NCBI GenBank assembly: GCA_015067025.1
Contig: SVNC01000003.1
Location: forward strand, 90,383 to 154,382
Direction: 5' to 3'
Source of the DNA: Oscillospiraceae bacterium
Lineage (GTDB): Bacteria > Bacillota > Clostridia > Oscillospirales > Ruminococcaceae
DNA: 64,000 nt
A program made the translations under genes and the position numbers. The first letter of the stretch is position 1; every line of letters begins with the position of its first letter. Positions 2,518-21,690 of this stretch are shown here, piece by piece. The notes under the pieces were generated by a model that was not told the origin of the DNA, made no database searches, and saw nothing but the letters and a program-made list of their open reading frames with translations.

Positions 2518-3537
2518 TTACAGTATTCCGAAATAAAGCAAAGCTATGCCTGTAGCACAAGCTAAAAGCTCTAACAATGAGAATACCGTTACTATCTTAC
2601 CTTCCTTCCAGCCTCTTATTTCAAAGCTGTGATGGATAGGAGTCATTTTGAAAAGTCTTTTTCCGTGGGTAAGCTTGAAATACGTCATCTGGATAAGAAC
2701 GGATAACGCTTCCCAAATGTATATAGCACTGCATACGACCATTATGAATTCAGTACCTGTTCCGATACCGAGTGCAGTTACGATACCGCCTAAGAACATT
2801 GAGCCTGTATCGCCCATCATAACCTTTGCAGGATGTAAATTCCACACTAAAAAGCCCATACAGCCTGCTCCTGCTACTGCCGCTACCAGTGACATTTCAC
2901 CAAAATCCACAAGCGAGCAAATAACAAGATATGCAGCACAGTATACTACTGTAACTGATGAGCATAAGCCGTCAACACCGTCTGTAAGATTTACCGCATT
3001 TACAAGATAGAGTATGCCAAGTCCCATTATAATGTAGTAAAAGTACCATAAATCAAGCTGACCTAAGAAAGGAAAGCTGATTACTGTAGACGTATCTCCT
3101 GAAATAATGCGGGAGGTAAAATATGCGGCTATTACAAGCACCTGCATAATTATTTTCTGAATAGGAGTAAGTCCCTCGTTACGCTTTTTCTTTACCTTTA
3201 TAAAATCGTCAACAAAGCCGATAAAGCCAAAGCATACCGCCATAACGATCGCAGAAACCGCTTTTATGAATTTTACCGTGCCTGTACTTTCAAAGCTTAT
3301 TGCTCCGTTTAACCACATAATAACGATACCTGTAATAAAGGCGATTATCGAACCTGCGATAAACATAACACCGCCCATTGTAGGTGTGCCTTCCTTGGAT
3401 TTATGCCACGCAGGACCTATATCAAGGATAGTCTGACCGAATTTCAGTCTTTTAAGAGCAGGGATGGTTACAAATCCCAGTAACGCCGTTACTCCGAAGC
3501 TTATAAGTGCCGCAATTACAGTTGCAGGTATATTCAT
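2518..3537 (-). CDS. mraY: Phospho-N-acetylmuramoyl-pentapeptide transferase MraY
   Basis: 339-aa polytopic protein with MraY motifs (GTPTMGG, VDDFIKV, NLTDGVDGL, MGDTGSMFLGG) in dcw context. Confidence 0.95.
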   Translation of the reverse strand: MNIPATVIAALISFGVTALLGFVTIPALKRLKFGQTILDIGPAWHKSKEGTPTMGGVMFIAGSIIAFITGIVIMWLNGAISFESTGTVKFIKAVSAIVMAVCFGFIGFVDDFIKVKKKRNEGLTPIQKIIMQVLVIAAYFTSRIISGDTSTVISFPFLGQLDLWYFYYIIMGLGILYLVNAVNLTDGVDGLCSSVTVVYCAAYLVICSLVDFGEMSLVAAVAGAGCMGFLVWNLHPAKVMMGDTGSMFLGGIVTALGIGTGTEFIMVVCSAIYIWEALSVLIQMTYFKLTHGKRLFKMTPIHHSFEIRGWKEGKIVTVFSLLELLACATGIALLYFGIL

Positions 3538-3543
3538 TGTGAT

Positions 3544-5016: not shown

Positions 5017-7300
5017 TTACAAGGAAGTTTACTTCTACTACCGATCCTCTGTATTGCATAGTTCCTGCTGAAATGCTCTGGGCGATTGCTCTTGATTCGT
5101 TACTGCCGTAAGCACCGGTCAGTCTTATGTTAAAGCCAGCTTCAGTAATAGCCTTATTCGCCTCTGTTACAGTCATACCGATTACGTTAGGTACTTCTCT
5201 GAGCTGATAATCACCTATCGTCATATCGCCCATATACACAACTACGGTACCGCCAGCCGGCATTATAGCACCTGATTGTGGGAACTGTCCGCCGACCATC
5301 GCTCCGTCCTCGGTGCTTCCTACTATTTCAGCCTTAAGTCCTGCCGCTGTCAGCAGTGCTTCTGCTCTGATACTGTTATAGCCACATATATATGGCACCG
5401 TTACGTCCTGAGTAAGCAGATCCTCTTCGGTATACTGGGGATAGATATTGAGATATTCAAGACCTTCCTTGAATACTGCAGATACTACGGGAGCCGCGAT
5501 GGCACTGCCGTAAATATATCCGCTCGTGGGTTCGTCTGCCACGACAAGCATCACGTATTCAGGATCATCTGCAGGTACTGTAGCGCAGAAGGTCGCAACG
5601 TATCTTAGCTCGTCGTGCTTACCGCTGTTATAGTCGTCGATCTTTTCTGACGTACCGCTCTTGCCGCCGATACGATAGCCGCTTATATAAGCATTACTAC
5701 CGCCGTTGAAGTTTACTACATCCTCAAGTATCTGACGCATAACGGCAGAAGTTTCTTCGCTTATTACCTGTCTTTTTACAACTGTTTCCGTAGCTTCAAC
5801 CACGTTGCCGTTACTGTCAACCACCTTATCAACGATATAGGGAGTAAGAAGTTTGCCGCCGTTTACTGCCGCACATACTGCTGTTGCCATCTGTATGGGG
5901 GTAACCTTGTTCGTCTGACCAAAGGCTGAACTGGAAAGCTCAACTATTCCCATATCAGAAAGGGGGACGTAAAGCGACTGTGCTTCTCCGGGAAGATCTA
6001 TACCTGTTTTTTCAGTAAAGCCAAAGGCTTCGAAATACTTTGTAAATTTATCCTGTCCTAAAAGCTGACCTATCTGAATAAACGCAGGGTTGCAGGAACG
6101 GATCATTGCTTCTGTAAGATTTGAAGTGCCGTGTCCGCCTGCACTCCAGCACTTGATATGTGTGCCTGCAACATCGGCAACGCCGCTGCACGTAAAGGTA
6201 CTGTCAAGACTTACCACTTCTTCTTCAAGAGCCGCCGCACAGGTGAATATTTTAAATACAGAGCCGGGGATATAAAGCTCACCAACGGCTTTATTCTGCC
6301 ACTGGCGACCCCATATTTCAGTTCTCGCTTCGTCAATCGCTTCTTCAGTTGCTCCGTCATCAGCCATCTGTGCCAACGTGTATCTATCCTTTTCAAAATA
6401 AACGAAGGAGGGATCGTTCGGATTAAAACCGGGGTAAGTCGCCATCGCAACTATTGCTCCGGTTTTGGCATTCATTATAATACCCGTGCTTCTGTTTTCA
6501 AGCTTATGCTGTGAAACCGTTGTTTCAAGATTTTTTTCAAGATAATACTGCAAGGTCTGGTCTATTGTAAGGATAAGACTGTTTCCGTCCTTGGCGGGAT
6601 AAAGTGCCTCATAACCGTAAGGCATATCGTCGCCCTGGTTATCCTTTGTTGTAACAATCTTTCCGTTTACGCCCTTTAAATACTCGTCGTAGTAGGATTC
6701 GATACCGTATGCACCACCGTTGGCGTTTACAAAGCCAAGTACACCTGCCGCAAGCGTTCCTTCGGGATAATGACGGATGCCGTTTTCTCTTGCGTAGCAC
6801 ATAACGTTGTAAAGCCCGTTGTCGCTCATAAACTTCTCGACTTTAGCTACCGTTTCTCTGTCCACCTGTTTTTTCGCAACGTATTCCCAGTATTCGTAAT
6901 CGTTACAGGCATCAACAAGAGTCTGCATATCTATATCAAGGATCTCAGCGAGATTTCTGCATATGAAATCTCTTTCCTCCTCGAAATTTGCCATATCCTT
7001 TTCTTCATCACCCTCGACGTAATTTATTCTGTATATCTCACGGGGCGATATAATTATATCCCAGGCAGGTGTGTTCTGTGCAAGAACCTTTCCGTTTCTG
7101 TCGTAGATGTTGCCTCTGTCGGCAAGCACGGTAAGTTCTTTTTGCTGCTGGCCCTCTGCTTTAGCTACCATATTATCGTGCTGTCCTACCGACCAGTAGA
7201 AAAGAAAGCCGGCTACGTAAACAGACATAAAACCAACAAGCAACAAAAGCACTACCAATATCCTGATTTTTATACCGTGTGTCAGTTTCCCTTCCATCAT
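5000..7300 (-). CDS. Class B penicillin-binding protein (FtsI/SpoVD-type transpeptidase) with two C-terminal PASTA domains
   Basis: 766 aa with an N-terminal TM anchor. Transpeptidase motifs are SVFK (SxxK), SCN (SxN) and KSGT (KTG). Two PASTA-like repeats lie at the C-terminus (VPYICGYNSIRAEALL..., VPNVIGMTVTEANKAI...). The gene overlaps the murE start by 17 nt. Confidence 0.9.
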   Translation of the reverse strand: MMEGKLTHGIKIRILVVLLLLVGFMSVYVAGFLFYWSVGQHDNMVAKAEGQQQKELTVLADRGNIYDRNGKVLAQNTPAWDIIISPREIYRINYVEGDEEKDMANFEEERDFICRNLAEILDIDMQTLVDACNDYEYWEYVAKKQVDRETVAKVEKFMSDNGLYNVMCYARENGIRHYPEGTLAAGVLGFVNANGGAYGIESYYDEYLKGVNGKIVTTKDNQGDDMPYGYEALYPAKDGNSLILTIDQTLQYYLEKNLETTVSQHKLENRSTGIIMNAKTGAIVAMATYPGFNPNDPSFVYFEKDRYTLAQMADDGATEEAIDEARTEIWGRQWQNKAVGELYIPGSVFKIFTCAAALEEEVVSLDSTFTCSGVADVAGTHIKCWSAGGHGTSNLTEAMIRSCNPAFIQIGQLLGQDKFTKYFEAFGFTEKTGIDLPGEAQSLYVPLSDMGIVELSSSAFGQTNKVTPIQMATAVCAAVNGGKLLTPYIVDKVVDSNGNVVEATETVVKRQVISEETSAVMRQILEDVVNFNGGSNAYISGYRIGGKSGTSEKIDDYNSGKHDELRYVATFCATVPADDPEYVMLVVADEPTSGYIYGSAIAAPVVSAVFKEGLEYLNIYPQYTEEDLLTQDVTVPYICGYNSIRAEALLTAAGLKAEIVGSTEDGAMVGGQFPQSGAIMPAGGTVVVYMGDMTIGDYQLREVPNVIGMTVTEANKAITEAGFNIRLTGAYGSNESRAIAQSISAGTMQYRGSVVEVNFLVNDETG

Positions 7301-7426
7301 TACTCCTTAAACGCCGTAAATAAAATACTTCAATAAAAAGCTTTATCCTTTTCCGAAAACAGCCGTGCTGAATTCAAAAAAGGAGCTTTTAGCCGCCACA
7401 CTTAGTGGCTTGTTCATTTATATTCA

Positions 7427-7921
7427 TCAAAATCCTAAATATTCCGCTACACCACGAAACCACTTGCTGATACCGACAAAGATATTATCATCAGTATCCT
7501 TTTTGGTTTCTATCAGTGCACCCGTATCCATCTCAACATACTTTTCCTGAGCGTTGACAACCTTCTGCATACCAAGCTCGTCCTTGGCGTACTGCTCCAC
7601 CTGTTCAAGTGATACAGACCCATTGAGCTCTGCTGAAAGTGCCGCATTCATCGCCTTGGTCTCCTCTAAGACGTTCTGTCTTAAGCTTACGTTAAGATTT
7701 GCTTCACTTACAGCCGCCTTACAGAATATAAACGCCATAAGCAGTATTCCGAATAAAGCCGCTACTACTGCAATTGCTACCGGTCTGCCCTTTTTAGCAG
7801 CCGATACCGTCACCACCTGAAGCTCAGGCTTTTCCTCAGCCTTTACCTGAGGTTTACGGAGCGATGTATCAAACAGCGAAAAATCATACGCTGTACTTGT
7901 TCTGTTGTATGAGTTCTCCAT
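7427..7921 (-). CDS. FtsL-like / septum-formation-initiator-type bitopic division protein
   Basis: 164 aa with a single central TM segment (VAIAVVAALFGILLMAFIF) followed by a coiled-coil-like segment. It occupies the ftsL slot between rsmH and the PBP. The call rests on position and architecture only. Confidence 0.5.
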   Translation of the reverse strand: MENSYNRTSTAYDFSLFDTSLRKPQVKAEEKPELQVVTVSAAKKGRPVAIAVVAALFGILLMAFIFCKAAVSEANLNVSLRQNVLEETKAMNAALSAELNGSVSLEQVEQYAKDELGMQKVVNAQEKYVEMDTGALIETKKDTDDNIFVGISKWFRGVAEYLGF

Positions 7922-7966
7922 CGTTCATTCCTCCATGAATTTACAATTTCTCTATAACCCTTGATT

Positions 7967-8902
7967 TTATAATTTCTCTATAATTCTTAATTTTGCACTA
8001 CGGCTTCTCACGTTTAAAGAAAGCTCTTCATCACCTGCTATTACAGGCTTTTTGTTTACAAGCACACCTCTTGGTGTCTTTCCGCATACGCATACGGGAA
8101 AGGAAGGCGGGCAGGTACACCCTGTGCAATATTCCTTGAATTTATTTTTCACTATCCTGTCTTCTATCGAATGGAAGGTTATAACGGCAAGTCTGCCACC
8201 TTCATTCAGTGCTTCAAAAGCACTGTCAAGCCCTGTCATAAGCTCGTCAAGTTCACCGTTTACTTCTATGCGGATCGCCTGAAAGGTCTTTTTGCAGGGG
8301 TTTTTTTCTTTTCTGACTTTAAGAGGTACGTTTCTCTTTATAATTTCAGCAAGCTGGAGCGTTGTTTCGATCGGAGCTGTTTCTCTTTGCTTTATTATGC
8401 CCGATACTATTCCTCTTGCAAATTTTTCTTCACCATACTCGAATAATATTTTTTCAAGCTGTGCGGCAGGATATTCATTGACAACATCGTAAGCACTGAG
8501 GCCGCTTTTGCTCATTCTCATATCAAGAGGTGCATCCTCGTGATAGGAAAAGCCACGCTCTGCTGTATCAAGCTGATAGGATGAAACACCAAGATCCATA
8601 AGCACTCCGTCAACCTTGGTAACGCCGATTTCCGAAAGTGCTTCAGTAAAACAGGAAAACTGTTTATTAATAAGTGTATGATTATAGGGTTTAAGCTTCT
8701 CTTCAGCCGCCTTTATTGCATCAGGATCTCTGTCAAAGCCGATAAGTCTGCCCTTTTCAAGTCTTTTTGCAATCTCACTCGAATGACCTGCAAAGCCTGT
8801 TGTACAGTCGACGTAAATACCATCCGGTTTTATATCAAGCCCTTCTATAGTCTCATTAAGCAGCACAGGTATATGAATTTGTTTTTCGCTCAATTTTACC
8901 AT
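7967..8902 (-). CDS. rsmH: 16S rRNA (cytosine1402-N4)-methyltransferase RsmH (MraW)
   Basis: 311 aa. HIPVLLNETIEGL, VDCTTGFAGHS and DLGVSSYQLD are classic RsmH motifs. It follows mraZ. Confidence 0.95.
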   Translation of the reverse strand: MVKLSEKQIHIPVLLNETIEGLDIKPDGIYVDCTTGFAGHSSEIAKRLEKGRLIGFDRDPDAIKAAEEKLKPYNHTLINKQFSCFTEALSEIGVTKVDGVLMDLGVSSYQLDTAERGFSYHEDAPLDMRMSKSGLSAYDVVNEYPAAQLEKILFEYGEEKFARGIVSGIIKQRETAPIETTLQLAEIIKRNVPLKVRKEKNPCKKTFQAIRIEVNGELDELMTGLDSAFEALNEGGRLAVITFHSIEDRIVKNKFKEYCTGCTCPPSFPVCVCGKTPRGVLVNKKPVIAGDEELSLNVRSRSAKLRIIEKL

Positions 8903-8927: not shown

Positions 8928-9353
8928 TCACATTCCGAGTTCTTCAGCTATTCTGCTTACCTCATCCTCGGTTTCAGGGCTTTCATTAAAGCTTGTCCAT
9001 GCAGCCTTATCCCATATTTCTGCTACACCGTCTTCCATACCGACAACCATAACATCGGTTGTAAGACCGGCATATTCAATAAGAGATGAATTTATAGATA
9101 CTCTGCCCTGCTTGTCCACAGTCAGTTCATCGGCAGAGCCGACAAGATATCTTCTGATGGTCTGAGTCTTAACGGGAGGTAACGCCTTAAGACTTTCCAT
9201 AAGTGCTTTCCACTCAGCCACAGAATAAACTCTTATACATCTTGTACCGATGTTTTTAGCAAGATAAAAGGAGTTCCCAAGCTCTTCACGAAGCTTTACA
9301 GGTATGTTCATTCTGCCCTTGGCATCAAGCGTTGATTTATGAGCACCAACCAT
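8928..9353 (-). CDS. mraZ: Transcriptional regulator MraZ
   Basis: 141 aa. MVGAHKSTLDAKGRMNIPVKLREEL plus a second DKQGRVSI repeat are the two SpoVT/AbrB-like MraZ repeats. It is the first gene of the dcw cluster. Confidence 0.95.
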   Translation of the reverse strand: MVGAHKSTLDAKGRMNIPVKLREELGNSFYLAKNIGTRCIRVYSVAEWKALMESLKALPPVKTQTIRRYLVGSADELTVDKQGRVSINSSLIEYAGLTTDVMVVGMEDGVAEIWDKAAWTSFNESPETEDEVSRIAEELGM

Positions 9354-9560
9354 ACCTTATCCCTCCCTTTCCTTGAATTTTTTAAGATTTATGTGGTAAG
9401 GTTAAAAAATTTCACCAAAAACGTGGATTTTTCACCTCAAAGATGAAAAAAAGTGTCTAAAAATATTATACATCGCCCTAACAAAAAATTCAAGTGGAAA
9501 TTTTATCATTTATAAAAAAATTATGCAGAATGTCGAGGGGAATTTTTGTAAAAAATGCAC

Positions 9561-9590
9561 AAAAAAATCGCCTCCCTAACGGGAGACGAT
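9561..9590 (-). terminator. Rho-independent terminator closing the 9674-14846 operon
   Basis: Minus strand reads TCGTCTCCC-GTTA-GGGAGGCGA followed by TTTTTTT, about 85 nt downstream of the stop at 9674. This insulates the operon from the mraZ promoter region. Confidence 0.7.
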
Positions 9591-9673
9591 TTGAGAATTA
9601 TTATCATTTTTCAATATGTTGTGGGTGGTTTTTTCGCCCTGACTACATTTTGAATTTGTGTAATATTTACTTT

Positions 9674-12600
9674 TTATTCAGCTTTTGCTTCTTCGTACTC
9701 ATCAGACAGATTATCTTCCAGCCACTTTGCAAGCATAAGAGGTGTAAGAATGAGATCCATTGTCTGCTGCTCACCGTCGCTTACACTTTCAAGCGCTATC
9801 ATATCACCGTGTTCACGGGTCTCGCTACCGATGATATCATAAGTAAGCTGGCTGCGGTACTTAATAGTACAAAGTAAAAACTCAGGAGGAATAGCTTCGC
9901 ATCTCTGGATTTCTTCAAGCCATATGAAAGGACTCATACCGCCGATGCTGATATCCTCAATAACCCAACCGCTTGCCGCGAAAGAGTCGTTAGCACACAT
10001 ATAAAGAGAGAACTTGAACTTTTCTTCCTTATCGTCCTTGAACAGACCAACTTCAAAGCCCTTTATAACGTAGTTATTGATGATACTTGTTTCGTTGCCG
10101 CAGCAAGAACAGATACCGCCGTAGCCAAAGAGCTTGCCGTTGATATCCTTAGCAAAGTAGTTGCGGTAAATTCTGAGATTAGAAAGACTTCTCAGCGTCT
10201 TGTAATGTTCACGGAGGAACTGAAGCTCGCCCTTTGTAATTGTGGGCAGAGGCTTATAATAATAAGGTATCTGATCAAGAAGTACCTGGTTAGGTTCTTC
10301 TGTGCTGGAGTAGAACTGACTTAGGATATTGTTGTTCTCGCCAACGAGCAGATATTCAAGATACTTAGAGAATTCAGGCTTTGTGCAGTCATCCTTGAGT
10401 ATTACGTACTTTGTGACGTTCTTACGTTCTTCTTCGCTTATCTCATCGTTGATATCAACAATACGGATGATCTTGTTACCCTCGCTGAGAAGTGCTATTC
10501 TCGGAATTTTGAGGTCGCAGATGTAAAGGCTGGGTATTACGGATGAAACCTTTTCATCTGTAAGATCATAACTACGCAAAAGGCTCATAAGAGAAGCCTT
10601 TTCGAAAGAGTAACCTGATTTTGAGAAGGGGAAGTCGAATACACGGCCGTTGAACATACCGCAGTTGATAAGTGCGTATACGTCACCGATGATTTCGAGA
10701 AGGTCAGCGTTTGTGATACTTCCCGGAATCATAAACTGCTTGCCGTAAGCAGCGAAACGGAACTTCTTGTTGATATCAAGCTGTAGCGTGATATCGCAAC
10801 CCTGTTCCTTCATTTCACGCAGGAAGGTCATTGTATCCTTACCCTGTGTGAAGCTGTTTATAAGCATATTGATAACTTCGTTGTAAATCTGGTGATTTTC
10901 AAAGTTATTCTTATGTGCCACGATACAATCGTAAATCTTCTTGAGATTGCCGACTGTCATTCTTGCAACGTCAAAATTATGCTGGATATCACGGTAGCGT
11001 ACGTTAAACTGATAGTAACGCATACCGATCTTATAATCCTGACCGTACATAGCGTCAAACAGTCCAAAGGCACCGATAAGTGCTTCTTCATCCGCTACAG
11101 CGTCATTGATAACATACTTGCCGAGCTTTAAGCTTACGATACTTCTGAAGCCAAAACTGATGCCAAAGTCCTTGATAGCAGGATTTTTTTCACTGTCAAG
11201 AACATATGTGTTATCACCGAAATTGAAGTGGTAGCAGAATTCACTGCCCTCTTCTTCCGTTTCCTCATCAGCCCAGTTGTAAGATGCCATAATAATGTTA
11301 TCAGGAAGATCTGCAACATCCGCCTTCATCTTTGTAAGTTCCTGTTCGATGTACTCTGTAAACGCAGAGCCATCCTCATGCTCTTTCTTTGTAACACCGT
11401 CAGCAGTGGAGAAGAAGCCTATCTCCTTAACCTCCGAATAGGGCATTATAGCCTCTCTGCCCGGTACGAGCAGGGACAGGCTGTTGTGGAACTTGCTCTG
11501 GAGATTACTTGCCATAACACTTGTATTTAAATAGTTGCTGAAGAACTCAAATACATAGTGCTTGGGTCTCATATAATATTTTTCTGAGTTCGTTCTGGGT
11601 AAAAGCTCTAAAACGAAGTATCTTGAATACTTGTCGATCATATATTCAAGGTCACGGCTGATAGAAGCGGAAACCTCTTCTTCACATTCGTGGCGGATAC
11701 CTGTTCTGTGAGTTGTGATATAGGAGTTAGGAACACTGATAAAGAAAGCTGAAAGCTTTTCCTTTATAAAGTCCTCACCCGTTGACTTGATAAGACCCGT
11801 CAGCTCGTAGGTCGAGAAGTAGTTGTACTTATCAAGCAGTACCTTTACAATAGTATCTCGGCGTGCCGCTGATACTGCAAAAGGAATAAGATATACAAAT
11901 CCATCGTTTTCGTGCCAGATGAACTCGATTACGCTCTTACCGTTCTGTAAGAAACGAACTGTAGGATCGTCCTCGGGATTTTTCTGATAACGGATAACCT
12001 TATATACAGCAAGAGGCTTGCCCATCTCCATTACTGCAATGTTGAAGGAACGCTCTCTGTTTTCAGCTTCACCAAATCTGCCGAGCTGTTTCTTTCTGAT
12101 AAAGGCAAAGCAGAATTCTACAAGGTTTATGTATTCGCCCTTGTGGATAGTTAAGTTGATAAGGTTTTCCTTGATCTTATTCTGTTCTTCTTCAGACACC
12201 TTGAATACGATCTCTGTACCCTTAAATACGGGAGCTGTAAGATTAAGCTCACGGATCTTCAGTATACCTGCATCGTTTACGATACGGAAGGTAAAGTTGT
12301 TGGAGCGGAGCTTCATCCACTCAACGTTCATAAATACGCTCTTTGAACCTACACCGAAACGACCTTCTCTTGACTTGTCTCCGTCACTTCTGCCGATACT
12401 TAAATAGTAGAGTATCTGCTCTAACGTAAAGCCGTCTTCGTTGTATGTAATTCTTGTTTCGCCATTCTGTTCAAAGTTGAACAGAACCTTGATATCGGGT
12501 TCAGAATAGTAACAACCAAAGGTATTCTGCATAAGCTCACGCAAAATGGATTCCTTAGGATAGTCACTTACTGAAAGTGAAGCGTTATAGGGGGTACGAC

Positions 12601-12775
12601 CCGAAAAGACCGAGTTGAAGTAATCCTTGAAAGGAGTACTGTCAGCTTCGCCGGTGTAAAGCAGATTCTGCATTTTCATCAGCGTCTGATCCATTGTAGC
12701 ACGGTCTTCATTTGCATGCGCCTGATAAAAGTCGCCTAACAGTCCTGATATTTCTTCGTTGCGAAATGCTTCCAC
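9674..12775 (-). CDS. 1033-aa protein with N-terminal sacsin/Hsp90-like GHKL (Bergerat-fold) ATPase motifs; remaining ~850 aa unassigned, with a Cys-rich C-terminal module
   Basis: Motif I-like ILRELMQN (aa 77-84) resembles the sacsin-type RELIQNADDA box. YNEDGFTLEQILYYLSIGRSDGDK and GRFGVGSKSVF (aa 138-148) resemble the sacsin/HATPase_c_3 GRFGLGF box. The start lies 1 nt after the stop of the upstream SNF2-like gene. No TM segment or signal peptide was seen. Confidence 0.6.
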   Translation of the reverse strand: MEAFRNEEISGLLGDFYQAHANEDRATMDQTLMKMQNLLYTGEADSTPFKDYFNSVFSGRTPYNASLSVSDYPKESILRELMQNTFGCYYSEPDIKVLFNFEQNGETRITYNEDGFTLEQILYYLSIGRSDGDKSREGRFGVGSKSVFMNVEWMKLRSNNFTFRIVNDAGILKIRELNLTAPVFKGTEIVFKVSEEEQNKIKENLINLTIHKGEYINLVEFCFAFIRKKQLGRFGEAENRERSFNIAVMEMGKPLAVYKVIRYQKNPEDDPTVRFLQNGKSVIEFIWHENDGFVYLIPFAVSAARRDTIVKVLLDKYNYFSTYELTGLIKSTGEDFIKEKLSAFFISVPNSYITTHRTGIRHECEEEVSASISRDLEYMIDKYSRYFVLELLPRTNSEKYYMRPKHYVFEFFSNYLNTSVMASNLQSKFHNSLSLLVPGREAIMPYSEVKEIGFFSTADGVTKKEHEDGSAFTEYIEQELTKMKADVADLPDNIIMASYNWADEETEEEGSEFCYHFNFGDNTYVLDSEKNPAIKDFGISFGFRSIVSLKLGKYVINDAVADEEALIGAFGLFDAMYGQDYKIGMRYYQFNVRYRDIQHNFDVARMTVGNLKKIYDCIVAHKNNFENHQIYNEVINMLINSFTQGKDTMTFLREMKEQGCDITLQLDINKKFRFAAYGKQFMIPGSITNADLLEIIGDVYALINCGMFNGRVFDFPFSKSGYSFEKASLMSLLRSYDLTDEKVSSVIPSLYICDLKIPRIALLSEGNKIIRIVDINDEISEEERKNVTKYVILKDDCTKPEFSKYLEYLLVGENNNILSQFYSSTEEPNQVLLDQIPYYYKPLPTITKGELQFLREHYKTLRSLSNLRIYRNYFAKDINGKLFGYGGICSCCGNETSIINNYVIKGFEVGLFKDDKEEKFKFSLYMCANDSFAASGWVIEDISIGGMSPFIWLEEIQRCEAIPPEFLLCTIKYRSQLTYDIIGSETREHGDMIALESVSDGEQQTMDLILTPLMLAKWLEDNLSDEYEEAKAE

Positions 12776-12776
12776 C

Positions 12777-14846
12777 TTACATCACTCCCTCATTATAATT
12801 TTTCATAAACTGCCTGAACGTATCCTGTATGATATATTCATCTGTAAGATAACGCCACGCACCGAGCAGTACGGGCATTCTCATAACGTCATCAAGCTGA
12901 TTTACACATATACGAAGCTCTGCATACTTGTTTTCCGTAAGGAAGTTTGCAAGAGCGTTCTGTGCCATTTTTATGCCGGAGCTGAGTTCTCCCGTTGCTA
13001 CCATAGCCTTATACTGACTGTACTTTGCGTGATTTAAGCAATCCTTAAGCTCATCGCCGCTTACCGTTTCGATCTTGTTATTTTCATCAAGATAAAGAAG
13101 TGCACCTTTGTAGCTGTCTATAACAGGCTTGATAAGAGCCTTTAAGGTCTTTTCATCTGTTGAGTTATCCTTTATCTTATCTTCAATGCCAAAAGCCTTG
13201 TAAATTCTCTGAAGCTTCTTTGAAGTATATTCATGAGCCTTTGCAGCTGTTGAAATGTCAATCTTGGGAATTACATTGAAGTCGCTCTTGAACTGAACTA
13301 TTACGTCGTGGCTGCTTGCGACCTCGCCTGTATATCCGCATACGTACTGAAGATCTCTTATACCGTTTACGATAAGCTGTACTGCGTTAGGTATATCAAA
13401 GAGAACGTTTCTGCCGGGCAGACCCTGAACAAGGCTCTTATAGATCTTGCCGAAGAGGACCTTTGATAACATACGGCTGTCAAACAGTCCGTTTTCATCG
13501 CAGAAAAGAATAAATTCCTTGCTGTTGTCTCCGGGTACACTGTGACGTGCTATTCTCTGTTCAAGCACTACAGGGCTGTTGGGAAGCTCGTAGTTGAAGA
13601 TATGTGTATATGTTTTTGTAGACGGCTTTATCGAACCTACCTTATCAACTGTAAGCACGATCTTTGTATTGTCTACTGCCGCAGTTTCTGTAAACTGGTC
13701 ATACTTTGTGTTGAAGATATCGCCGCGGTCGATCCTGATCGTATTACCGCTGTTGGGGTAAATAGCCGCAAGAATTTTTCTGAGGTATGTAATAGTAGAA
13801 CCTGTTACACAGTATACGACCGCCTTTGAGGAGGAAGAATTCATAACCTCTTCAAGCTTTGTAAGGAAGCAATCAAGCTTCTTATCCACCTCACGAAGCT
13901 CGCCCACATCCGCTAAGTTATATGTGGGCTTTGTATATATCTTCTTCGCTTCAAGACCGTATTCTTCAAAGATATTACCACCGCTCTGGTATAAAGGGAG
14001 TCCCGTCTTGATATCAACAAGCTTTCTTGAATTTGCAATAAAATCTGCAGGGAAAGCATAATCAAGCACTACGACGTTTCTTGCTACGTCACCATTATAC
14101 ACTTCTGCGTCGTAATAGCGCATTACGGGTTCATAAGGATTGAAACGTATCGTCTGCTTGGAGAAAGTAAGGTCATCAACCGCCTTTGACTTTTCCTCAT
14201 CCTTCATAAGTCCCTTTACAAGATTCTTTATATCATCGTAACCGCCCTCATATTCGCAGGGAACAGGGCTGAAAACAACAAGCTTTTCCGTCTTAGATTT
14301 TATGTGATCAAGATAAAGACTGCTGTTTATACCGGCAATGTTAAGACCTGCATCAATAACGATAAGACCCCATACGAGTCCGGACTGTTCAAACTGTGCG
14401 AGTATCGGGTTATCTGCCTTTACAGCATCCTCGGCGATAATGAACATATTCGACATATTCGCATCAAAATTGTTGATGGAACGGGATGCACCTGATATCA
14501 TCTTGAAGTCTACGCCGTCATTTGTAACGATGGATCTGTACCAGTTGTGCATAAGGTGTTTGGGACACACCAAAAGGATGTTCGGTGTACTCTTGCCCTG
14601 AATAGCATCAAGTATCGAAAGCTGAGCCTTCGCCGCCTTTGCCGAGCCGTACTCGTCGAGTACGAGACAGAAACCGAACTGTCTTACCTTTTCATAAAAT
14701 GACTGGTTAATCGTACCTGTATCCTTACCATAGTAGGATATCCATTTGATTTCTTCGGTATTCAAAAAATCACCCTCCAGTTTATATTGAAGCCGATTCG
14801 TAAAAAATGCGGCAAACAACTCATTAACATAACTATTATAATACAT
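12777..14846 (-). CDS. SNF2/SF2 helicase-like protein (689 aa) with degenerate Walker A and DEAH boxes
   Basis: LVLDEYGSAKAAKA stands in place of SNF2 motif I (DEMGLGKT). LLVCPKHLMHNW is motif Ia. LIVIDAGLN stands in place of motif II (DEAH). VVFSPVP stands in place of motif III (TGTP). The C-terminal lobe has KAVVYCVTGSTITYLRKIL and FNYELPNSPVVLEQRIARHSV (motif V/VI-like). No obvious Shine-Dalgarno sequence precedes the ATG at 14846. Confidence 0.6.
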   Translation of the reverse strand: MYYNSYVNELFAAFFTNRLQYKLEGDFLNTEEIKWISYYGKDTGTINQSFYEKVRQFGFCLVLDEYGSAKAAKAQLSILDAIQGKSTPNILLVCPKHLMHNWYRSIVTNDGVDFKMISGASRSINNFDANMSNMFIIAEDAVKADNPILAQFEQSGLVWGLIVIDAGLNIAGINSSLYLDHIKSKTEKLVVFSPVPCEYEGGYDDIKNLVKGLMKDEEKSKAVDDLTFSKQTIRFNPYEPVMRYYDAEVYNGDVARNVVVLDYAFPADFIANSRKLVDIKTGLPLYQSGGNIFEEYGLEAKKIYTKPTYNLADVGELREVDKKLDCFLTKLEEVMNSSSSKAVVYCVTGSTITYLRKILAAIYPNSGNTIRIDRGDIFNTKYDQFTETAAVDNTKIVLTVDKVGSIKPSTKTYTHIFNYELPNSPVVLEQRIARHSVPGDNSKEFILFCDENGLFDSRMLSKVLFGKIYKSLVQGLPGRNVLFDIPNAVQLIVNGIRDLQYVCGYTGEVASSHDVIVQFKSDFNVIPKIDISTAAKAHEYTSKKLQRIYKAFGIEDKIKDNSTDEKTLKALIKPVIDSYKGALLYLDENNKIETVSGDELKDCLNHAKYSQYKAMVATGELSSGIKMAQNALANFLTENKYAELRICVNQLDDVMRMPVLLGAWRYLTDEYIIQDTFRQFMKNYNEGVM

Positions 14847-15027
14847 TTGCGAATTTTTTACAACTGTATTTTTGCATTTTATAAAAATTTGATAAAATTT
14901 CTATATAAAATTCGTAAAATTTGCACTATAATTTTGTTTAACTGTTCAAAACAACTGCTCACTTTCGTCAAAAAATTGATTAATCCGAAAAATTATTTTA
15001 AATTTTTCAAGTTTCTTTCGACCTTAC

Positions 15028-15056
15028 TTGACAAAATCCGCAGAATATAGTATCAT
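15028..15056 (+). promoter_or_regulatory. SigA-type promoter for the deacetylase gene
   Basis: TTGACA (15028-15033), a 17-nt spacer, then TATCAT (15051-15056). Confidence 0.5.
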
Positions 15057-15081
15057 AATAACATATATATCAATGTGAGGA

Positions 15082-16203
15082 GTGGTTTGCTTGTATTTTG
15101 GCAGCGTCAGATTTTTCAAGCATCTGATCCTGACCGTCGTCGCATTGCTGATTATAGTACCCACTATCCTGTGCATTATCCTTTTATGCGATAACAGCAG
15201 CAAGTCTGCAGAAATAGACAGACTTAATTCTATAATAGCAAGCGGAGAATATAAGGACGATGTGTCGGACGATTCTTCAGTGACTGAAAGCTCCGATGAT
15301 AAAAGCTCATCGGAATCTTCAGTGACCGAAGGAGAAACATCCGTATCCTCCGAAAAAGAGCCTGAGACTTCCGCTCCCGAAACCACTACCGAAGAGCCTG
15401 AGACCTCCGCTCCCGAAACGACTACCGAAGAGCCTGAGACCTCCGCTCCCGAAACGACTACCGAAGAGCCTGAGACTTCTACTCCCGAAACAACCACGGA
15501 AGAACCTGAAAGCTCATTACCTGATGAAAACATTGATCTTTCCACCTTGTACGAGGATATGTATGTCGATCGCTATGAAGGTGAATATATAAACGATGAC
15601 AACACGGTCTATCTCACCTTTGACGACGGACCTTCGATACTGACAGAAAACATACTTATGTACTTAAGGCAAGAGGAAGTAAAAGCCACCTTCTTTGTAG
15701 TGCCTGAGGATACCGAATACTGTCGTATTCTTTTAAGAAAGATCGTTGCTGACGGACACACCATCGGCATCCACACTTCTTCTCACGATTATGAGAAGAT
15801 ATACAGCTCTCCGAAGGCGTTTTTAGATGATTTCTACGCCGCTTACAGCCTTGTATATGAGGCTACGGGAGTAAAAGCAGACATCTACCGCTTTGCCGGC
15901 GGAAGTATAAACGACTATAACGAAAACACAAGAGATGAAATTATTGCTGAAATGAGCCGCAGAGGTTTTCAGTACTTTGACTGGAACGTGGACAGCAATG
16001 ACTGGCAGGGATATAACTGGACACAGCTTTACAACAACGTTCTGAAAGATGCCTGCAAATTTTCAACACCTGTTATACTTTTCCACGACACGGGAATGAG
16101 AGAAAATACCGTTCTTGTGCTGGAAGACATAATAAAGGCATTAAAAAACAAAGGATATAAATTCGGCAGTCTTTCACAGAAGACCGAGCCGATACAGTTT
16201 TAA
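15082..16203 (+). CDS. Membrane-anchored polysaccharide deacetylase (NodB homology domain, CE4) with a Thr/Glu/Pro-rich repeat linker
   Basis: 373 aa with an N-terminal TM segment. NodB motifs are present: YLTFDDGPS, HTIGIHTSSHDY, YRFAGGS and ILFHD. The true start may be TTG at 15091, 9 nt after the GAGGAG at 15076-15081, rather than GTG at 15082. Confidence 0.85.
   Translation: MVCLYFGSVRFFKHLILTVVALLIIVPTILCIILLCDNSSKSAEIDRLNSIIASGEYKDDVSDDSSVTESSDDKSSSESSVTEGETSVSSEKEPETSAPETTTEEPETSAPETTTEEPETSAPETTTEEPETSTPETTTEEPESSLPDENIDLSTLYEDMYVDRYEGEYINDDNTVYLTFDDGPSILTENILMYLRQEEVKATFFVVPEDTEYCRILLRKIVADGHTIGIHTSSHDYEKIYSSPKAFLDDFYAAYSLVYEATGVKADIYRFAGGSINDYNENTRDEIIAEMSRRGFQYFDWNVDSNDWQGYNWTQLYNNVLKDACKFSTPVILFHDTGMRENTVLVLEDIIKALKNKGYKFGSLSQKTEPIQF
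15358..15501 (+). repeat. In-frame 36-bp tandem repeat x4 (EPETSAPETTTE) inside the deacetylase gene
   Basis: Units at 15358-15393, 15394-15429, 15430-15465 and 15466-15501 are near-identical, differing only at a few bases. A degenerate fifth unit follows. Confidence 0.95.
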
Positions 16204-16236
16204 AAAGTTTAATCAATAACTGAAAGAGGGATAAAA

Positions 16237-17070
16237 ATGGGACTGAAGGATAATTTTTCACAGGCTTTCAAGGAGCTGACAAATCCTAAGGAGGCTAAGG
16301 ATCAGGGAAAGACTGAAATCAAGGATGTCGCTTCATATATGAACGACACTGAAGAAGAAGCAGTACAGACACAGCCTGTAGAAGAGGCTCAGACTGTTAC
16401 AGAAAAGGAGGAAACACCCGTGGCAGATCAGCAGTTTGCTCAGAATGCACCCCAGCAGGATGCTCCTCAGAGTTATCAGCAAGCTCAGAGTTATCAACAG
16501 ACTCAGAATAACGATAACGCATACAGCAGACAGGGTTATCAGCAGAATGTGGCTCCCGTTGCAGCCAACCCCTTCGGTTATTCCGATAATATGCGTCAGG
16601 ACGTTTCTGAAACTACTATAATTTCCAAAAATACAATTATTGACGGTAACATCCGTTCCTTTGCCGATATGAAGATCGACGGCAGCATCAAGGGCAGCGT
16701 TGAAACCACCAAGAACGTAAGTATAAATGGTAAGGTTGTAGGAAACATCACCTGCGACAATGCAGTTATGAAGTCTTCCTCTGTTCAGGGTAATGTTACT
16801 CTTAAGGGTCAGGCTACAATGACAAGCGAATCAATGCTCATCGGCGATCTGACTTCTCAGGTAGCTACATTAAACGGCAAGATGAAGGGTAACCTCACAG
16901 TAGCAGGTAAAGCTCAACTTGACAGAGACGCTGTTATCTTCGGCGATATCAAGGCAGGTGCAATTTCCATTTCTGATGGTGCTATCGTTCAGGGTTATGT
17001 CAGCACCACTTATCTTTCACAGGATGAAAGCAGTAACATCTTCCCCGAAAGCATTGCAATCGGCGAATAA
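16237..17070 (+). CDS. Bactofilin-family cytoskeletal protein with a Gln/Asn-rich N-terminal region
   Basis: 277 aa. The C-terminal ~150 aa are beta-helical bactofilin-like repeats (IDGNIRSFADMKIDGSIKGSV...INGKVVGNITC...VQGNVTLKG...). The N-terminal half is Q-rich (QQFAQNAPQQDAPQSYQQAQSYQQTQNN). Confidence 0.8.
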   Translation: MGLKDNFSQAFKELTNPKEAKDQGKTEIKDVASYMNDTEEEAVQTQPVEEAQTVTEKEETPVADQQFAQNAPQQDAPQSYQQAQSYQQTQNNDNAYSRQGYQQNVAPVAANPFGYSDNMRQDVSETTIISKNTIIDGNIRSFADMKIDGSIKGSVETTKNVSINGKVVGNITCDNAVMKSSSVQGNVTLKGQATMTSESMLIGDLTSQVATLNGKMKGNLTVAGKAQLDRDAVIFGDIKAGAISISDGAIVQGYVSTTYLSQDESSNIFPESIAIGE

Positions 17071-17145
17071 TCCCATAAATATACCCATATACATTCTCTG
17101 CCCCGCTTAATATCGGGGCAGATTTTAGAATAAGAGAGGTTTTAT

Positions 17146-17748
17146 ATGTCACTCACTCAGCAACAGATAAATGAAAATAAACAGAGATTCATTGAGCTTT
17201 TCAACACCTGCGTAAAAAGAGAAGGTGCTGATAAGATCATCGATTATCTTGTAAATAAAAGCGATTTTTTCACAGCCCCTGCAAGCACGAGATTTCACGG
17301 TGCTTTTGATGGCGGGCTTGCTTTACATTCGCTGAACGTATATGATTGCCTCAAGGACTATCTTGAAAGACAAAGAGTAAAGGAGCAGTACAAGCTCGCT
17401 TACAGTGATGAAAGCATTGTTATATGCTCCCTGCTCCACGATATCTGCAAGGCTAACGTCTACGTCAGAGGCACGAGAAACGTAAAGAATGATCAGGGCG
17501 TATGGGAAACCGTCCCTACATACTTTTTTGAAGATAAGCTCCCCTACGGTCACGGAGAAAAATCCGTATATATGATAACAGGCTTTATGCGACTTACAAG
17601 AGAAGAAGCCTTTGCTATAAGATACCATATGGGCTTTTCAGGAAACGAGGACAGCAACAACGTAGGAAAGGCATTCGAGATGTTCCCTCTTGCTTTTGCT
17701 TTAAGCACAGCGGATATGGAAGCTACGTATTTCGTTGAAAAGGATTAA
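17146..17748 (+). CDS. HD-domain metal-dependent phosphohydrolase
   Basis: 200 aa with the spacing of an HD superfamily protein: FHGAFDGGLALHS, LLHDICK, HGEKS and RYHMG. Confidence 0.7.
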   Translation: MSLTQQQINENKQRFIELFNTCVKREGADKIIDYLVNKSDFFTAPASTRFHGAFDGGLALHSLNVYDCLKDYLERQRVKEQYKLAYSDESIVICSLLHDICKANVYVRGTRNVKNDQGVWETVPTYFFEDKLPYGHGEKSVYMITGFMRLTREEAFAIRYHMGFSGNEDSNNVGKAFEMFPLAFALSTADMEATYFVEKD

Positions 17749-17796
17749 AAAATAAGATAACGGTCAAAAATAGCAGTACGGATTTTAAAAAAGCAG

Positions 17797-17825
17797 TTGA
17801 CAAATCCGTACTGCTGTGTTATAAT
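17797..17825 (+). promoter_or_regulatory. Consensus SigA promoter for ssrA
   Basis: TTGACA (17797-17802), a 17-nt spacer, then TATAAT (17820-17825), about 24 nt upstream of the tmRNA 5' end. The -35 box sits in the loop of a 12-bp inverted repeat (CAGTACGGATTT...AAATCCGTACTG). Confidence 0.6.
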
Positions 17826-17848
17826 TACTATCTTAAAGATATATAAAC

Positions 17849-18200
17849 GGGCCCGTAAAGGTTTCGACGGGGGTAGTGAACCCGACTAAGCACGCAGAGA
17901 TCGCCTTATCTCTTAAAACGGGGCAAACTTTAAAATTAAACGCAGACAATAGATCTGAATTAGCAGCTGCCTAAGCGCACTGCCGTCCTCCTGAGAACCG
18001 CTGCGATCTCAGCTAGGGCGTCGACCAGCAGCCAACGTTTTAAGCAAGAGCCTTGTAGCTTTTAACGCATCAAAAGGCTACCGTATCAGCAATCCTGTTT
18101 GTCGGAGTGCTGTGAGGGAATTTCAAAAGATAAACTAAGCGTGTAGAAAGGTTGGCGGATTTGCTTTCGGACAGGAGTTCGATTCTCCTCGGGTCCACCA
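17849..18200 (+). ncRNA. ssrA: tmRNA (SsrA)
   Basis: 5' GGGCCCGTAAAGGTTTCGACGGGGG and 3' GGACAGGAGTTCGATTCTCCTCGGGTCCACCA form a tRNA-Ala-like acceptor and T-arm with a G-U third pair. The predicted tag ORF is GCA GAC AAT AGA TCT GAA TTA GCA GCT GCC TAA (17942-17974), giving ADNRSELAAA. Confidence 0.9.
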
Positions 18201-18204
18201 AAAA

Positions 18205-18241
18205 AGAAGGGACTTTTGGTAGACAAAAGTTCCTTCTTTTT
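18205..18241 (+). terminator. Rho-independent terminator of ssrA
   Basis: AGAAGGGACTTTTG-GTAGA-CAAAAGTTCCTTCT followed by TTTT. Confidence 0.8.
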
Positions 18242-18356
18242 ATCCAAGCCGCAGGCTTGACATATTTAGACTGAAAAAGCAATACGAAATTTACGACTGG
18301 AACACTTATCAGTGCATAGTAAAGTAATCCCCAAACCCCAAACCTGAACCGACATC

Positions 18357-18387
18357 TAAAAACCCGGTATCGTTTTGATACCGGGTT
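18357..18387 (-). terminator. Terminator downstream of the alpha-galactosidase gene
   Basis: AACCCGGTATC-loop-GATACCGGGTT, followed by a U-run when read on the minus strand. Confidence 0.75.
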
Positions 18388-18391
18388 TAAA

Positions 18392-19654
18392 TTATGCTCT
18401 TGTAAGCTTAAACAGTCTTGCTCCGTGAGTTTTAACCTTGGCTGTTATTTTGTCTGTTGCTGTACCGCAGTTTTCTTTTGTCCAGACATCAGTAACGGTA
18501 AAGTCTGCCGCAAAGGGAAGCTCTGCGGATATTTCACAGTCTGTTTCACCTGCGTTGAATAAAGCTATATAATAGCTTTTTCCGTCGTTGTGAGAGGTAA
18601 ACCAGGCAATCTGTTCGTTGCCGTCAACCGTCTTTCTGAATAAGGGGTGTGCGGAATGAGTGTTGTTCAGCACCTCAAAAAGCTCTCCGTTTGTAAGGAT
18701 AGACATTGTAAAGTCGTCAAACTTTGTCATTTCTCCGCCTATCATAAGAGGTGAACGCATAACGCTCCAGAGAGTCATCATAGTTATCTGCTCGTCCTCT
18801 GTAAACTTCGTGTAGTTATCAGGGCCGTAATCCTGCAAGATAGCGCCAATAGGGAGCATATCGCAATCGGGCCAGTGACCCGCACCTGAATGTATACACC
18901 ATTTTTCAGCACGTTCAAACATATTGTAAAGCAGTTCCCACTTATCCCAGAAGTCATCGGTTATACGCCACATATTTGAAACCTGCTTATAAAGCTCCGC
19001 TCTTTCAAGCTGTGCAGGACCGGGTGAAAGGCTGAGCACCATATCCCTGCCGCAGCTGCGGATAGACTCGCTCACCATACAAAGCTCGCTTTCCTCGTGA
19101 GGAAGCTCACGGCAGATATCATCTATCTTGATAAAATCCACTCCCCAGCTTGCATAAAGCTCGAAAAGGCTGTCGTAATATGCTCTTGCACCTTCCTTTT
19201 CAGGGTCTACGCCGTACATATCGGTATTCCACTGGCATATGGATGAGGTTTTTGCTATCTCACGGGCAGTCTTGTCTGTTCCCATTATAGCAGTATTTCT
19301 ATGTACCGCTTGACGTGGAATACCTCTCATAATATGAATACCGAATTTAAGTCCTAAGGAATGAATATATTCAGCAAGCGGAGCAAAGCCCTTGCCGTCC
19401 TTTGAAGACGGGAATCGGTTTTCTGCAGGAATAAGGCGGGAATATTCATCCATACAAAGCTCGGTAAAGGGGTGATATTCGTGAGTGTCTGCTGTGGGTT
19501 GTGACCACTGGATATCGACTACGATATATTCCCAGCCGTACTGTTTAAGATGCTTCGCCATAAAATCCGCATTGGCACGGACTGTTTCTTCGTTTACTGC
19601 AGGGCCGTAGCAGTCCCAGCTGTTCCATCCCATAGGTGGTGTTTTTGCAATCAT
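18392..19654 (-). CDS. Alpha-galactosidase, GH27-like
   Basis: 420 aa. The N-terminal PPMGWNSWDCYG is the hallmark GH27 motif. YIVVDIQW and DFIKIDD also fit the TIM-barrel catalytic region. Confidence 0.8.
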   Translation of the reverse strand: MIAKTPPMGWNSWDCYGPAVNEETVRANADFMAKHLKQYGWEYIVVDIQWSQPTADTHEYHPFTELCMDEYSRLIPAENRFPSSKDGKGFAPLAEYIHSLGLKFGIHIMRGIPRQAVHRNTAIMGTDKTAREIAKTSSICQWNTDMYGVDPEKEGARAYYDSLFELYASWGVDFIKIDDICRELPHEESELCMVSESIRSCGRDMVLSLSPGPAQLERAELYKQVSNMWRITDDFWDKWELLYNMFERAEKWCIHSGAGHWPDCDMLPIGAILQDYGPDNYTKFTEDEQITMMTLWSVMRSPLMIGGEMTKFDDFTMSILTNGELFEVLNNTHSAHPLFRKTVDGNEQIAWFTSHNDGKSYYIALFNAGETDCEISAELPFAADFTVTDVWTKENCGTATDKITAKVKTHGARLFKLTRA

Positions 19655-19862
19655 ATTTATCTCCTTTGTAATAAATATTACGTACCGATGTTCTTAGGAA
19701 CAAAGGTAATTTCTTTGATTTTAACGGTATGATTATATCATAATTTTACATTAATGTAAAGTGCACAAAAACGATACAATCGTTGTAATATTGATTTTCA
19801 TTGAATTTTATGGTAAAATTAATTCAGAAAACGATCTATTAAATCAAATGAGGTGACTTAAC

Positions 19863-21596: not shown

Positions 21597-21605
21597 CCCA
21601 CAAAA

Positions 21606-21686: not shown

Positions 21687-21690
21687 ACGC

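Follow-up and report, generated by a model that had tools for sequence, protein, structure and literature searches.

A SNF2-fold protein and a sacsin/Hsp90-type GHKL ATPase form a fixed gene pair in gut Oscillospiraceae, with distant relatives in defence-like contexts

The stretch of DNA analysed here (the window) comprises 64,000 nucleotides of an Oscillospiraceae bacterium (GenBank assembly GCA_015067025.1, contig SVNC01000003.1, positions 90,383 to 154,382) and carries, beside its division and cell-wall (dcw) gene cluster, two adjoining genes of one operon, which we call A and B. Gene A encodes a SNF2-fold protein with degenerate ATPase motifs, and gene B encodes a giant protein with a GHKL ATPase domain of the sacsin/Hsp90 type. 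Here, we report the structure of the two genes, the homology of their products, the loss of catalytic motifs in A, the distribution of the pair, the selection acting on it and the genomic context of both its window clade and its distant relatives. In the window clade, A-B behaves as a fixed, vertically inherited core pair and not as a mobile defence cassette. The general theme of a GHKL ATPase encoded with a superfamily 2 helicase is already known; what is unusual here is the apparent pseudo-SNF2 subunit, the vertical fixation and a C-terminal half of B that has no match in the PDB or BFVD.

The operon and its two proteins

Two large open reading frames (ORFs) had been placed at 12777..14846 (-), with 689 residues, and at 9674..12775 (-), with 1033 residues, in an earlier note made from the letters of the window, and both are present; the two-gene operon is real (Table 1). 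The stop codon of A and the start of B are one base apart (ATG-TAA-G-GTG), as the same note had said in proposing translational coupling, although its ATG start for B has to be replaced by a GTG preceded by the Shine-Dalgarno sequence GGGAG. The size given there for B stands; that of A probably does not. The ATG at 14846, which the ORF finder took as the start of A, falls within a TTGTAA-17-TATAAT promoter-like site. Since GGAGG lies 8 nt ahead of an in-frame TTG, most A homologs begin at MNTEEIKW in the alignment and the 27-codon upstream extension is unconserved, the true start of A is most likely TTG 14765-14763, giving 662 residues rather than 689. The intrinsic terminator claimed for the operon was found as well (9592-9565, -), and mraZ has a separate promoter-like site at 9493-9465; A-B is thus a transcription unit of its own.

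Table 1. Features of the A-B operon and of its products (window coordinates; residue numbers are those of the protein).
Feature	Coordinates	Strand	Remarks
Gene A	12777..14765	-	SNF2-fold protein, degenerate ATPase motifs; 662 aa from TTG 14765 (most likely start); maximal ORF to ATG 14846, 689 aa
Gene B	9674..12775	-	GHKL ATPase giant, 1033 aa
A-B coupling junction	12773..12789	-	Shine-Dalgarno GGGAG 12789-12785, last A codon, TAA 12779-12777, 1 base, GTG 12775-12773
Promoter-like site of the operon (candidate, sigma-70-like)	14835..14863	-	TTGTAA, 17 nt, TATAAT; 10/12 consensus matches; consensus match only
Shine-Dalgarno GGAGG of A	14774..14778	-	8 nt ahead of in-frame TTG 14765-14763
Intrinsic terminator of the operon	9565..9592	-	12-bp stem, 4-nt loop, T-run
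A, motif I position	14628..14660	-	LDEYGSAKAAK, against DEVGCGKT in distant partners; Walker A reads GSAKA
A, motif II position	14340..14366	-	LIVIDAGLN; D165 kept, catalytic Glu lost; DEGH in distant partners
A, motif VI remnant	13536..13565	-	LEQRIARHSV; E429, R431, R434 and H435 invariant within the clade
B, GHKL (Bergerat-fold) domain, sacsin/Hsp90 type	12086..12553	-	residues ~75-230; ELMQN (E80, N84), YNEDGF 111-116, REGRFGVGSKSVF 136-148, GTEI 186-189
B, middle/transducer-like domain	11216..12058	-	residues ~240-520; Foldseek alignments of ~500 columns to Hsp90 N-terminal plus middle domains and to the MutL N-terminal domain; invariant R357
B, C-terminal half	9677..11158	-	residues 540-1033; family-specific; separate model, pLDDT 82.5
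B, Cys cluster, candidate zinc ribbon	9869..10126	-	residues 884-969; GYGG, C889-x2-C892, C927, C969

As a single sequence, B had no match in Pfam (including PF25794, SACS) or PADLOC, and it scored below the cut-off of 50 against the NCBIfam sacsin N-terminal model NF047352 (E 2e-4, 21.7 bits). An alignment of 33 family members (47-99% identity) is conserved from end to end, with ELxQN, YNExGF, REGRFGxGxKSVF and GTE invariant. An exhaustive search of 1.84 billion representative proteins with the family profile returned 157 matches, of which about 10 were close full-length homologs and about 13 distant relatives; the others aligned over residues ~75-200 only, in large proteins, and those sampled bear Pfam SACS and/or HATPase_c_3 domains (E 1e-22 to 1e-9). 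HATPase_c_3 itself matches four of 13 B family members, all from the distant clade (best 8.6e-8), and leaves window B unmatched. The sacsin link of window B is transitive, passing through the family profile. The AlphaFold model of B (pLDDT 78.9) matched, in Foldseek, the N-terminal plus middle domains of Hsp90, TRAP1, GRP94 and HtpG over ~500 columns, the MutL N-terminal domain and the ATPase modules of TopoII and GyrB, with E about 1e-9. Owing to these matches, residues ~75-520 are read as a GHKL domain followed by a transducer/middle domain, and the GHKL assignment proposed earlier for B holds, its type being that of sacsin/Hsp90. Against PDB sequences the profile ranked Hsp90 N-domains first, weakly (E 0.002); the sole match of the single-sequence PDB search was a spurious repeat and was discounted.

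E80, N84, YNExGF, GxFGxGxK and R357 are invariant across the window and distant clades, R357 being a candidate gamma-phosphate sensor. The pattern of the glycine-rich lid, GRFGVGSKS (138-146), is likewise invariant, and T187 of GTEI nearly so. Two positions depart from expectation. At motif II the whole family has YNExGF in place of DxGxG, and E113 may substitute for the missing Asp. Three residues after the Asn of motif I, the window clade has Gly (QNTFGC) and the distant clade Asp (QNIIDC).

The earlier note had found no motif in some 850 residues that follow the ATPase signature. Residues ~240-520 of these now fall to the Hsp90/MutL-type middle/transducer domain, and 540-1033 are still without a match: no significant fold was found in the PDB (best E 0.085, probability 0.06) or BFVD (best E 0.034), and the exhaustive profile search retrieved this half within the family only, so that ~500 confidently modelled residues have no counterpart in either structure collection. 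Within it, all aligned members of the two clades have C889, C892 and C927, and most have C969; the region has a weak structural match to a zinc ribbon (probability 0.54) and is a candidate zinc-binding site. A nuclease of PD-(D/E)xK or HNH type was considered for the C-terminus and rejected, as the invariant residues include neither ExK nor His.

Protein A scored below the Pfam cut-off of 24.9 for SNF2-rel_dom (E=0.021, 14.4 bits) and had no match to Helicase_C. Its PADLOC matches were weak and limited to the generic SNF2 models of DISARM, Hma, Dpd and BREX, the best being DrmD (6.8e-7, 25 bits, on the C-lobe) and HmaA (5.9e-6), over generic helicase lobes only. The best PDB match in a single-sequence search, RapA, was not significant (E 0.4). 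The A profile nevertheless aligned with the SNF2 helicase of a distant relative (locus L088) end to end, through both RecA-like lobes (hhalign 99.9%, E 3e-31, 619 columns), and the latter has precomputed matches to SNF2-rel_dom, ResIII and Helicase_C and matches PADLOC DrmD at 4e-35. By homology and fold, A is an end-to-end homolog of genuine SNF2 helicases, and this homology is secure.

What A has lost is the catalytic apparatus, and this part of its earlier description as an SNF2 helicase does not stand. In addition to the changes at motifs I and II (Table 1), motif III reads SPV in the window against SAT in the distant partners, and motif VI reads QRIARH against QRFGRIDR, the first two Arg being kept and the third lost. 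The combination of GxGK[TS] with D[ED] occurs in none of the 78 clade members: D[ED] stands alone in 37 and GxGK[TS] alone in seven, and 34 lack both. Because no member keeps both Walker A and motif II, A is best read as a pseudo-helicase, presumably unable to work as a translocating one. One sub-clade (L056, L061, L070, L073, L078, L081 and L084) keeps a GEGKT Walker A and has DAAG, DASG or DGSG in place of DExH; a second keeps DEEQ and has GSEKLTK at Walker A. These sub-clades keep opposite halves of the ATPase site, and decay was independent in the two. Such mosaic decay is what would be expected after loss of ATPase activity at the base of the clade.

Distribution, inheritance and distant relatives

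Among 185,579 species-representative genomes, a scan brought up 196 relatives of B, and 80 of their loci were examined. All 80 are from uncultured gut or rumen metagenome-assembled genomes labelled Oscillospiraceae, Ruminococcaceae, Ruminiclostridium or Clostridia, with a few evident mislabels. The window shares about 99% identity with a genome of this kind labelled 'Ruminiclostridium sp.', Ruminiclostridium being an Oscillospiraceae genus. In each of the 79 informative loci, A is the gene immediately ahead of B and runs in the same direction; the 80th has just 315 nt of upstream sequence. The flanks are housekeeping genes that differ from clade to clade and fall into several types: small HD-motif protein, bactofilin and polysaccharide deacetylase (PDA) on one side with mraZ-rsmH-ftsL-penicillin-binding protein (PBP) on the other; FGGY kinase-aldolase with PNPase-S15, or agmatine deiminase and CN hydrolase; rnfC-D-G following A-B; and genes for ThrRS, an ABC exporter, MBOAT, a permease, GH32 or MCP. 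Adjacency to mraZ persists down to 52-56% B identity (L001, L016, L022), that is, in several deep sub-lineages, not all. No defence neighbours of A-B were found across the ~80 species loci, and no plasmid match was found for the pair.

The variable region downstream of B was considered as a defence hotspot and rejected: its genes encode a permease, GH32, MCP, PfkB, LRR and DUF4867 proteins. In one of the 80 loci (L029, 11027-11965, +) an ORF for a patatin-like phospholipase directly follows B on the same strand with a nominal overlap; it is the sole effector-like neighbour seen in the Oscillospiraceae clade. The lone 'phage' match (L175) was to MT835670.1, a 22-kb record from human faeces labelled 'UNVERIFIED: Bacteriophage sp.', which has HD-bactofilin-PDA-A-B at 1-8203 in the order of the window and a B that is 86% identical. 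To judge by this synteny, the record is mislabelled and represents a piece of bacterial chromosome rather than a phage.

The rank order of pairwise identities of A and B follows that of RsmH and PBP. Ratios of nonsynonymous to synonymous substitution rates (dN/dS) against close relatives were 0.014-0.025 for B and 0.030-0.066 for A, as compared with 0.035-0.057 for RsmH, 0.023-0.112 for PBP and 0.039-0.132 for MraZ, and the dS of A and B was comparable with that of neighbouring genes. Purifying selection on A-B thus equals or exceeds that on rsmH and PBP, and B is among the most conserved proteins compared at the locus, in Oscillospiraceae that are abundant and uncultured in human and animal guts. 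The corresponding ratio of diversities within one human-gut species (piN/piS) was 0.035 for B, 0.061 for A and 0.056-0.090 for flanking genes; in the same population piS was 0.089-0.090 for A and B, 0.082 for PDA and 0.12 for bactofilin.

For a population view, a metagenome scan anchored on the HD-motif gene yielded 80 contigs, mostly of one human-gut species. Every one of the 43 contigs whose flank reaches 8 kb or more carries both A and B, so that no presence/absence polymorphism was seen among these; A is present in 16 of 17 contigs with 3.5-8 kb of flank. One metagenome contig (L160, 1-2539) has the HD-bactofilin anchor followed by a different 589-aa ORF instead of PDA and A, and could be a rearrangement or a chimeric assembly. 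It is owing to the housekeeping flanks, the selection measures and the 43 contigs bearing the pair that we regard A-B as a fixed core pair. The earlier note had looked to presence/absence polymorphism and enrichment beside defence genes for signs of a defence role; the first was not seen in the 43 contigs, and the second is wanting in this clade, where the neighbours are housekeeping genes. That note had also held that strictly core homologs, syntenic with dcw and away from defence islands, would refute such a role; within the clade this is largely what was found, apart from the sub-lineages that lack mraZ synteny.

The distant relatives, which are rare, differ in context. We examined seven systems in which B has 19-25% identity to that of the window. 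An SNF2 gene immediately precedes B in all seven, overlapping it or within 3 nt; six encode proteins of ~705-729 aa with precomputed SNF2-rel_dom and Helicase_C matches, and the seventh (L086) is cut by the end of its contig. A search with the profile of this clade returned six proteins. In two systems (L086 and L088/L089) B is followed directly, in the same orientation, by PDC-S68, a RecD-like superfamily 1 (SF1) helicase of ~1200 aa, with full-length PADLOC matches (E=0; 1525 and 1747 bits). PDC-S68 is missing from three others whose sequence continues beyond B (L087, L170/L171 and L172), and no homolog was found in the 64-kb window or at any Oscillospiraceae-clade locus. Four of the seven adjoin mobile, defence-like or variable genes. 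In L086, the trio of SNF2, GHKL giant and PDC-S68 (8993-14041) is followed directly by DndF and DndG; around the trio of L088 (7367-17345) lie genes for a phage integrase, HTH regulators, phage replication, an IstB-like ATPase, MazE and an AAA_15/21 protein; L085 has a serine recombinase nearby; and L170 has dynamin-like GTPases, Fic, a Pol-beta nucleotidyltransferase and metallophosphatases. The GC content of the distant contigs is 25-33% (42% in L170), against 42-50% in the Oscillospiraceae clade. PDC-S68, which PADLOC lists as a single-gene candidate, may be the third gene of a three-gene system whose two upstream genes lie outside the PADLOC model; it went unmentioned in the papers found by our literature search. 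These relatives would define an unnamed candidate system in which an active SNF2 helicase is paired with a GHKL giant, PDC-S68 being present in some cases. The window pair differs from the three-gene module in its degenerate A and its lack of PDC-S68.

Comparison with known systems and probable function

GHKL and S5-domain ATPases of the MORC/paraMORC type are encoded with superfamily II (SFII) helicases, including SWI2/SNF2 ones, in predicted restriction-modification-like operons (Iyer, Abhiman & Aravind, 2008, PMC2292703), and MORC operons have been described as laterally mobile (PMC2292703). Like these systems, A-B combines GHKL, a transducer-type domain and a family-specific C-terminal extension with an SNF2-family gene alongside, and its distant relatives stand in a mobile, conflict-system context. 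Nevertheless, the ATPase domain of B groups with sacsin/Hsp90-type sequences, and the window pair has no nuclease or methylase, a catalytically degenerate helicase and vertical inheritance. The best library matches of A are DISARM DrmD, Hma HmaA, Dpd DpdE and BREX BrxH, and these are far stronger for the distant partners; the other genes of those four systems are not present, and A lacks Walker A and the Glu of DExH. For DISARM in particular, there is the weak DrmD match only, and PADLOC found no DrmA, DrmB, DrmC/E or methyltransferase among the scanned neighbours. Judged by the components that define these systems, A-B falls outside DISARM, Hma, Dpd and BREX, and probably outside MORC/paraMORC. 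A literature search found no description of a bacterial pair of SNF2 and sacsin-like GHKL proteins and B has no PADLOC model, so the earlier placement of the pair outside named defence systems holds.

Resemblances outside defence are partial. B shares motif I (ELxQN) and motif III (GRFGxGxxS) with the sacsin repeat region (PF25794, NF047352); unlike sacsin, it has a single module without DnaJ or HEPN, and its C-terminal half is unrelated. RapA, the SNF2 protein associated with RNA polymerase, is collinear with A over motifs I-Ia and V-VI, although its ATPase motifs are intact and it has no GHKL partner. Arabidopsis MOM1 has a degenerate SNF2 domain. It is linked to MORC6 in silencing (PMC10338684). 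This offers a functional analogy only, in which a GHKL ATPase cooperates with an SNF2-derived protein for which helicase activity is no longer required; MOM1-MORC6 acts on chromatin, common descent with A-B is unsupported and the interaction of A with B is putative.

The explanation that we consider somewhat better than evenly supported is that A and B form a two-subunit complex derived from a rare defence-island module and are now a fixed core pair in gut Oscillospiraceae. The ancestral module would have had two parts, an active SNF2 helicase and a GHKL giant, sometimes accompanied by PDC-S68, and would have been rare, mobile and resident in defence islands. After its capture by an ancestor of these Oscillospiraceae, the lineage would have lost the SF1 helicase, if it was ever present, and the SNF2 ATPase site, the pair then being kept under strong constraint. 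B would be the only working motor: its Bergerat domain would bind and hydrolyse ATP through E80, N84, the GRFGxGxKS lid and probably R357, and by analogy with Hsp90, MutL and MORC, ATP would drive dimerization and closing of a clamp. The C-terminal half of B, with its Cys3-4 zinc-ribbon-like site, would serve in substrate binding or output. A, which keeps the SNF2 fold and a family-specific C-terminal region with the conserved stretches NYELP, PVLLGAW and YNEG, is most likely a non-catalytic adaptor that binds nucleic acid or B, and would be made stoichiometrically with B through translational coupling. Because the ancestral form has helicase partners, DNA is the probable substrate; the complex most likely acts on it in a constitutive chromosome- or nucleoid-associated function or in fixed surveillance, rather than as a mobile, dispensable immunity cassette.

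Several points weigh against this explanation. We infer the binding of A to B, the ATPase activity of B and DNA as substrate. The activity of B could itself be altered, given the NExGF form of motif II and the Gly three residues after N84. Domestication as the direction of evolution is read from motif integrity in an unrooted comparison, and in principle the distant clade could be the derived one, which we favour less because its catalytic motifs are intact. Fixation and purifying selection are compatible with an immune role, since certain lineages carry defence systems that are close to fixation. The word core refers to one species population and to the 196 species having the gene. Finally, B evolves unevenly, its identity being 78% in one lineage and 56% in another whose RsmH and PBP are about as distant. 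Identities to the window for L001 (with L021) and L016 are, respectively, 56 and 78% for B, 79 and 81% for RsmH, 65 and 65% for PBP and 79 and 65% for the HD-motif protein; in L001/L021 either A-B evolved faster or the pair was replaced in situ.

The closest competitor, which we consider possible though unlikely, is that A-B still defends against phage or plasmids and has become fixed in the lineage, B sensing or clamping foreign DNA with an effector in its C-terminal half and A regulating it independently of ATP. The distant pairs do adjoin PDC-S68, DndFG, integrases and recombinases, the top library matches of A are defence SNF2 models, operons of GHKL with SFII/SNF2 are a known restriction-like theme (PMC2292703), and GHKL-regulated nucleases protect against phage, as was shown experimentally for VcSduA (PMC12137116). 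In the window clade, however, residues 540-1033 of B show no sign, in fold or motif, of a nuclease, a toxin or another effector, the ~80 species loci lack defence neighbours, neither presence/absence polymorphism (in the 43 contigs) nor diversifying selection was seen, the division PBP is less conserved than B, and the helicase motor and the third gene are gone. The earlier suggestion of a defence candidate is supported for the distant relatives, found in defence and mobile contexts, and unsupported for the window genome. The selection and population data, together with the want of an effector signature, lead us to weight a housekeeping chromosome role above a fixed immune one. A bolder form of domestication, to which we give still less credence, would make the pair a lineage-specific, essential-like chromosome factor, with a GHKL clamp guided by an ATPase-dead SNF2 protein, as a prokaryotic counterpart of the eukaryotic MORC-type ATPases that work with degenerate, MOM1-like SNF2 proteins, and with an output domain of ~500 residues whose fold lies outside the PDB.

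That B is an Hsp90- or sacsin-type chaperone or quality-control ATPase, with A as a co-chaperone-like adaptor and no role for nucleic acids, seems improbable to us. It would account for the best structural matches, which are to complete Hsp90/TRAP1/GRP94/HtpG N-terminal plus middle domains, for the Hsp90 N-domains that lead the profile matches to PDB sequences, and for the Pfam Sacsin domain borne by the closest sequence relatives of the ATPase domain, sacsin being a reported chaperone (PMC3710099). However, the ATPase domains of MutL and type II topoisomerases score almost equally, no DnaJ, TPR or Hsp90 client-binding C-terminal domain was found, and the invariant SNF2-family partner points to nucleic acids, since in distant relatives it keeps its helicase motifs and can be accompanied by a RecD-like SF1 helicase. 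A role in cell division or the envelope, tied to the dcw cluster, is very improbable: the pair does adjoin mraZ on its upstream side and shares its orientation, both in the window and in the sub-lineages named above, but a strong terminator and the separate mraZ promoter-like site divide the two units, most other clades carry A-B elsewhere (PNPase, rnf, ThrRS, agmatine deiminase) and neither protein resembles a division or envelope factor.

If A-B is indeed a two-subunit complex of defence-island descent, it would be a sequence-documented case of an immune-type module, an SNF2 helicase with a GHKL ATPase, frozen into a core pair, in which one enzyme decayed to a pseudoenzyme under strong selection. 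This would bear on the recruitment of conflict systems for cellular functions, as has been proposed for eukaryotic MORCs.

Surroundings of the operon in the window

The operon lies where the earlier note had put it, between the mraZ end of the dcw cluster (mraZ-rsmH-ftsL-PBP) and the cell-envelope genes for PDA and bactofilin, beyond which come the small HD-motif protein, which has no Pfam match, and a transfer-messenger RNA (tmRNA) gene. PADLOC matched none of the ten non-dcw neighbours that were scanned (15082-33682), and ~20 kb on that side of A-B yielded neither a nuclease nor a methylase, the other side being the dcw cluster. The tmRNA gene, ssrA (17849-18200, +), encodes the tag ADNRSELAAA and follows the HD-motif gene. 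Shortly downstream of it, from ~19.5 kb, the GC content falls to 0.35-0.39 over ~9 kb (19500-29000) in surroundings of 0.42-0.45; this stretch codes for MarR, YhhN, an FtsX/ABC pair and a 577-aa protein without a Pfam or PADLOC match, and may be an island integrated near ssrA. A-B itself was rejected as part of an ssrA island, since the tmRNA gene is 3 kb off, beyond three conserved genes, and A-B lies on its 5' side. The PDA gene (15082-16203, +) encodes an N-terminal low-complexity linker of four tandem 11-residue units (about EPETSAPETTT), and the same repeat yields a long spurious antisense ORF at 15024-15545.

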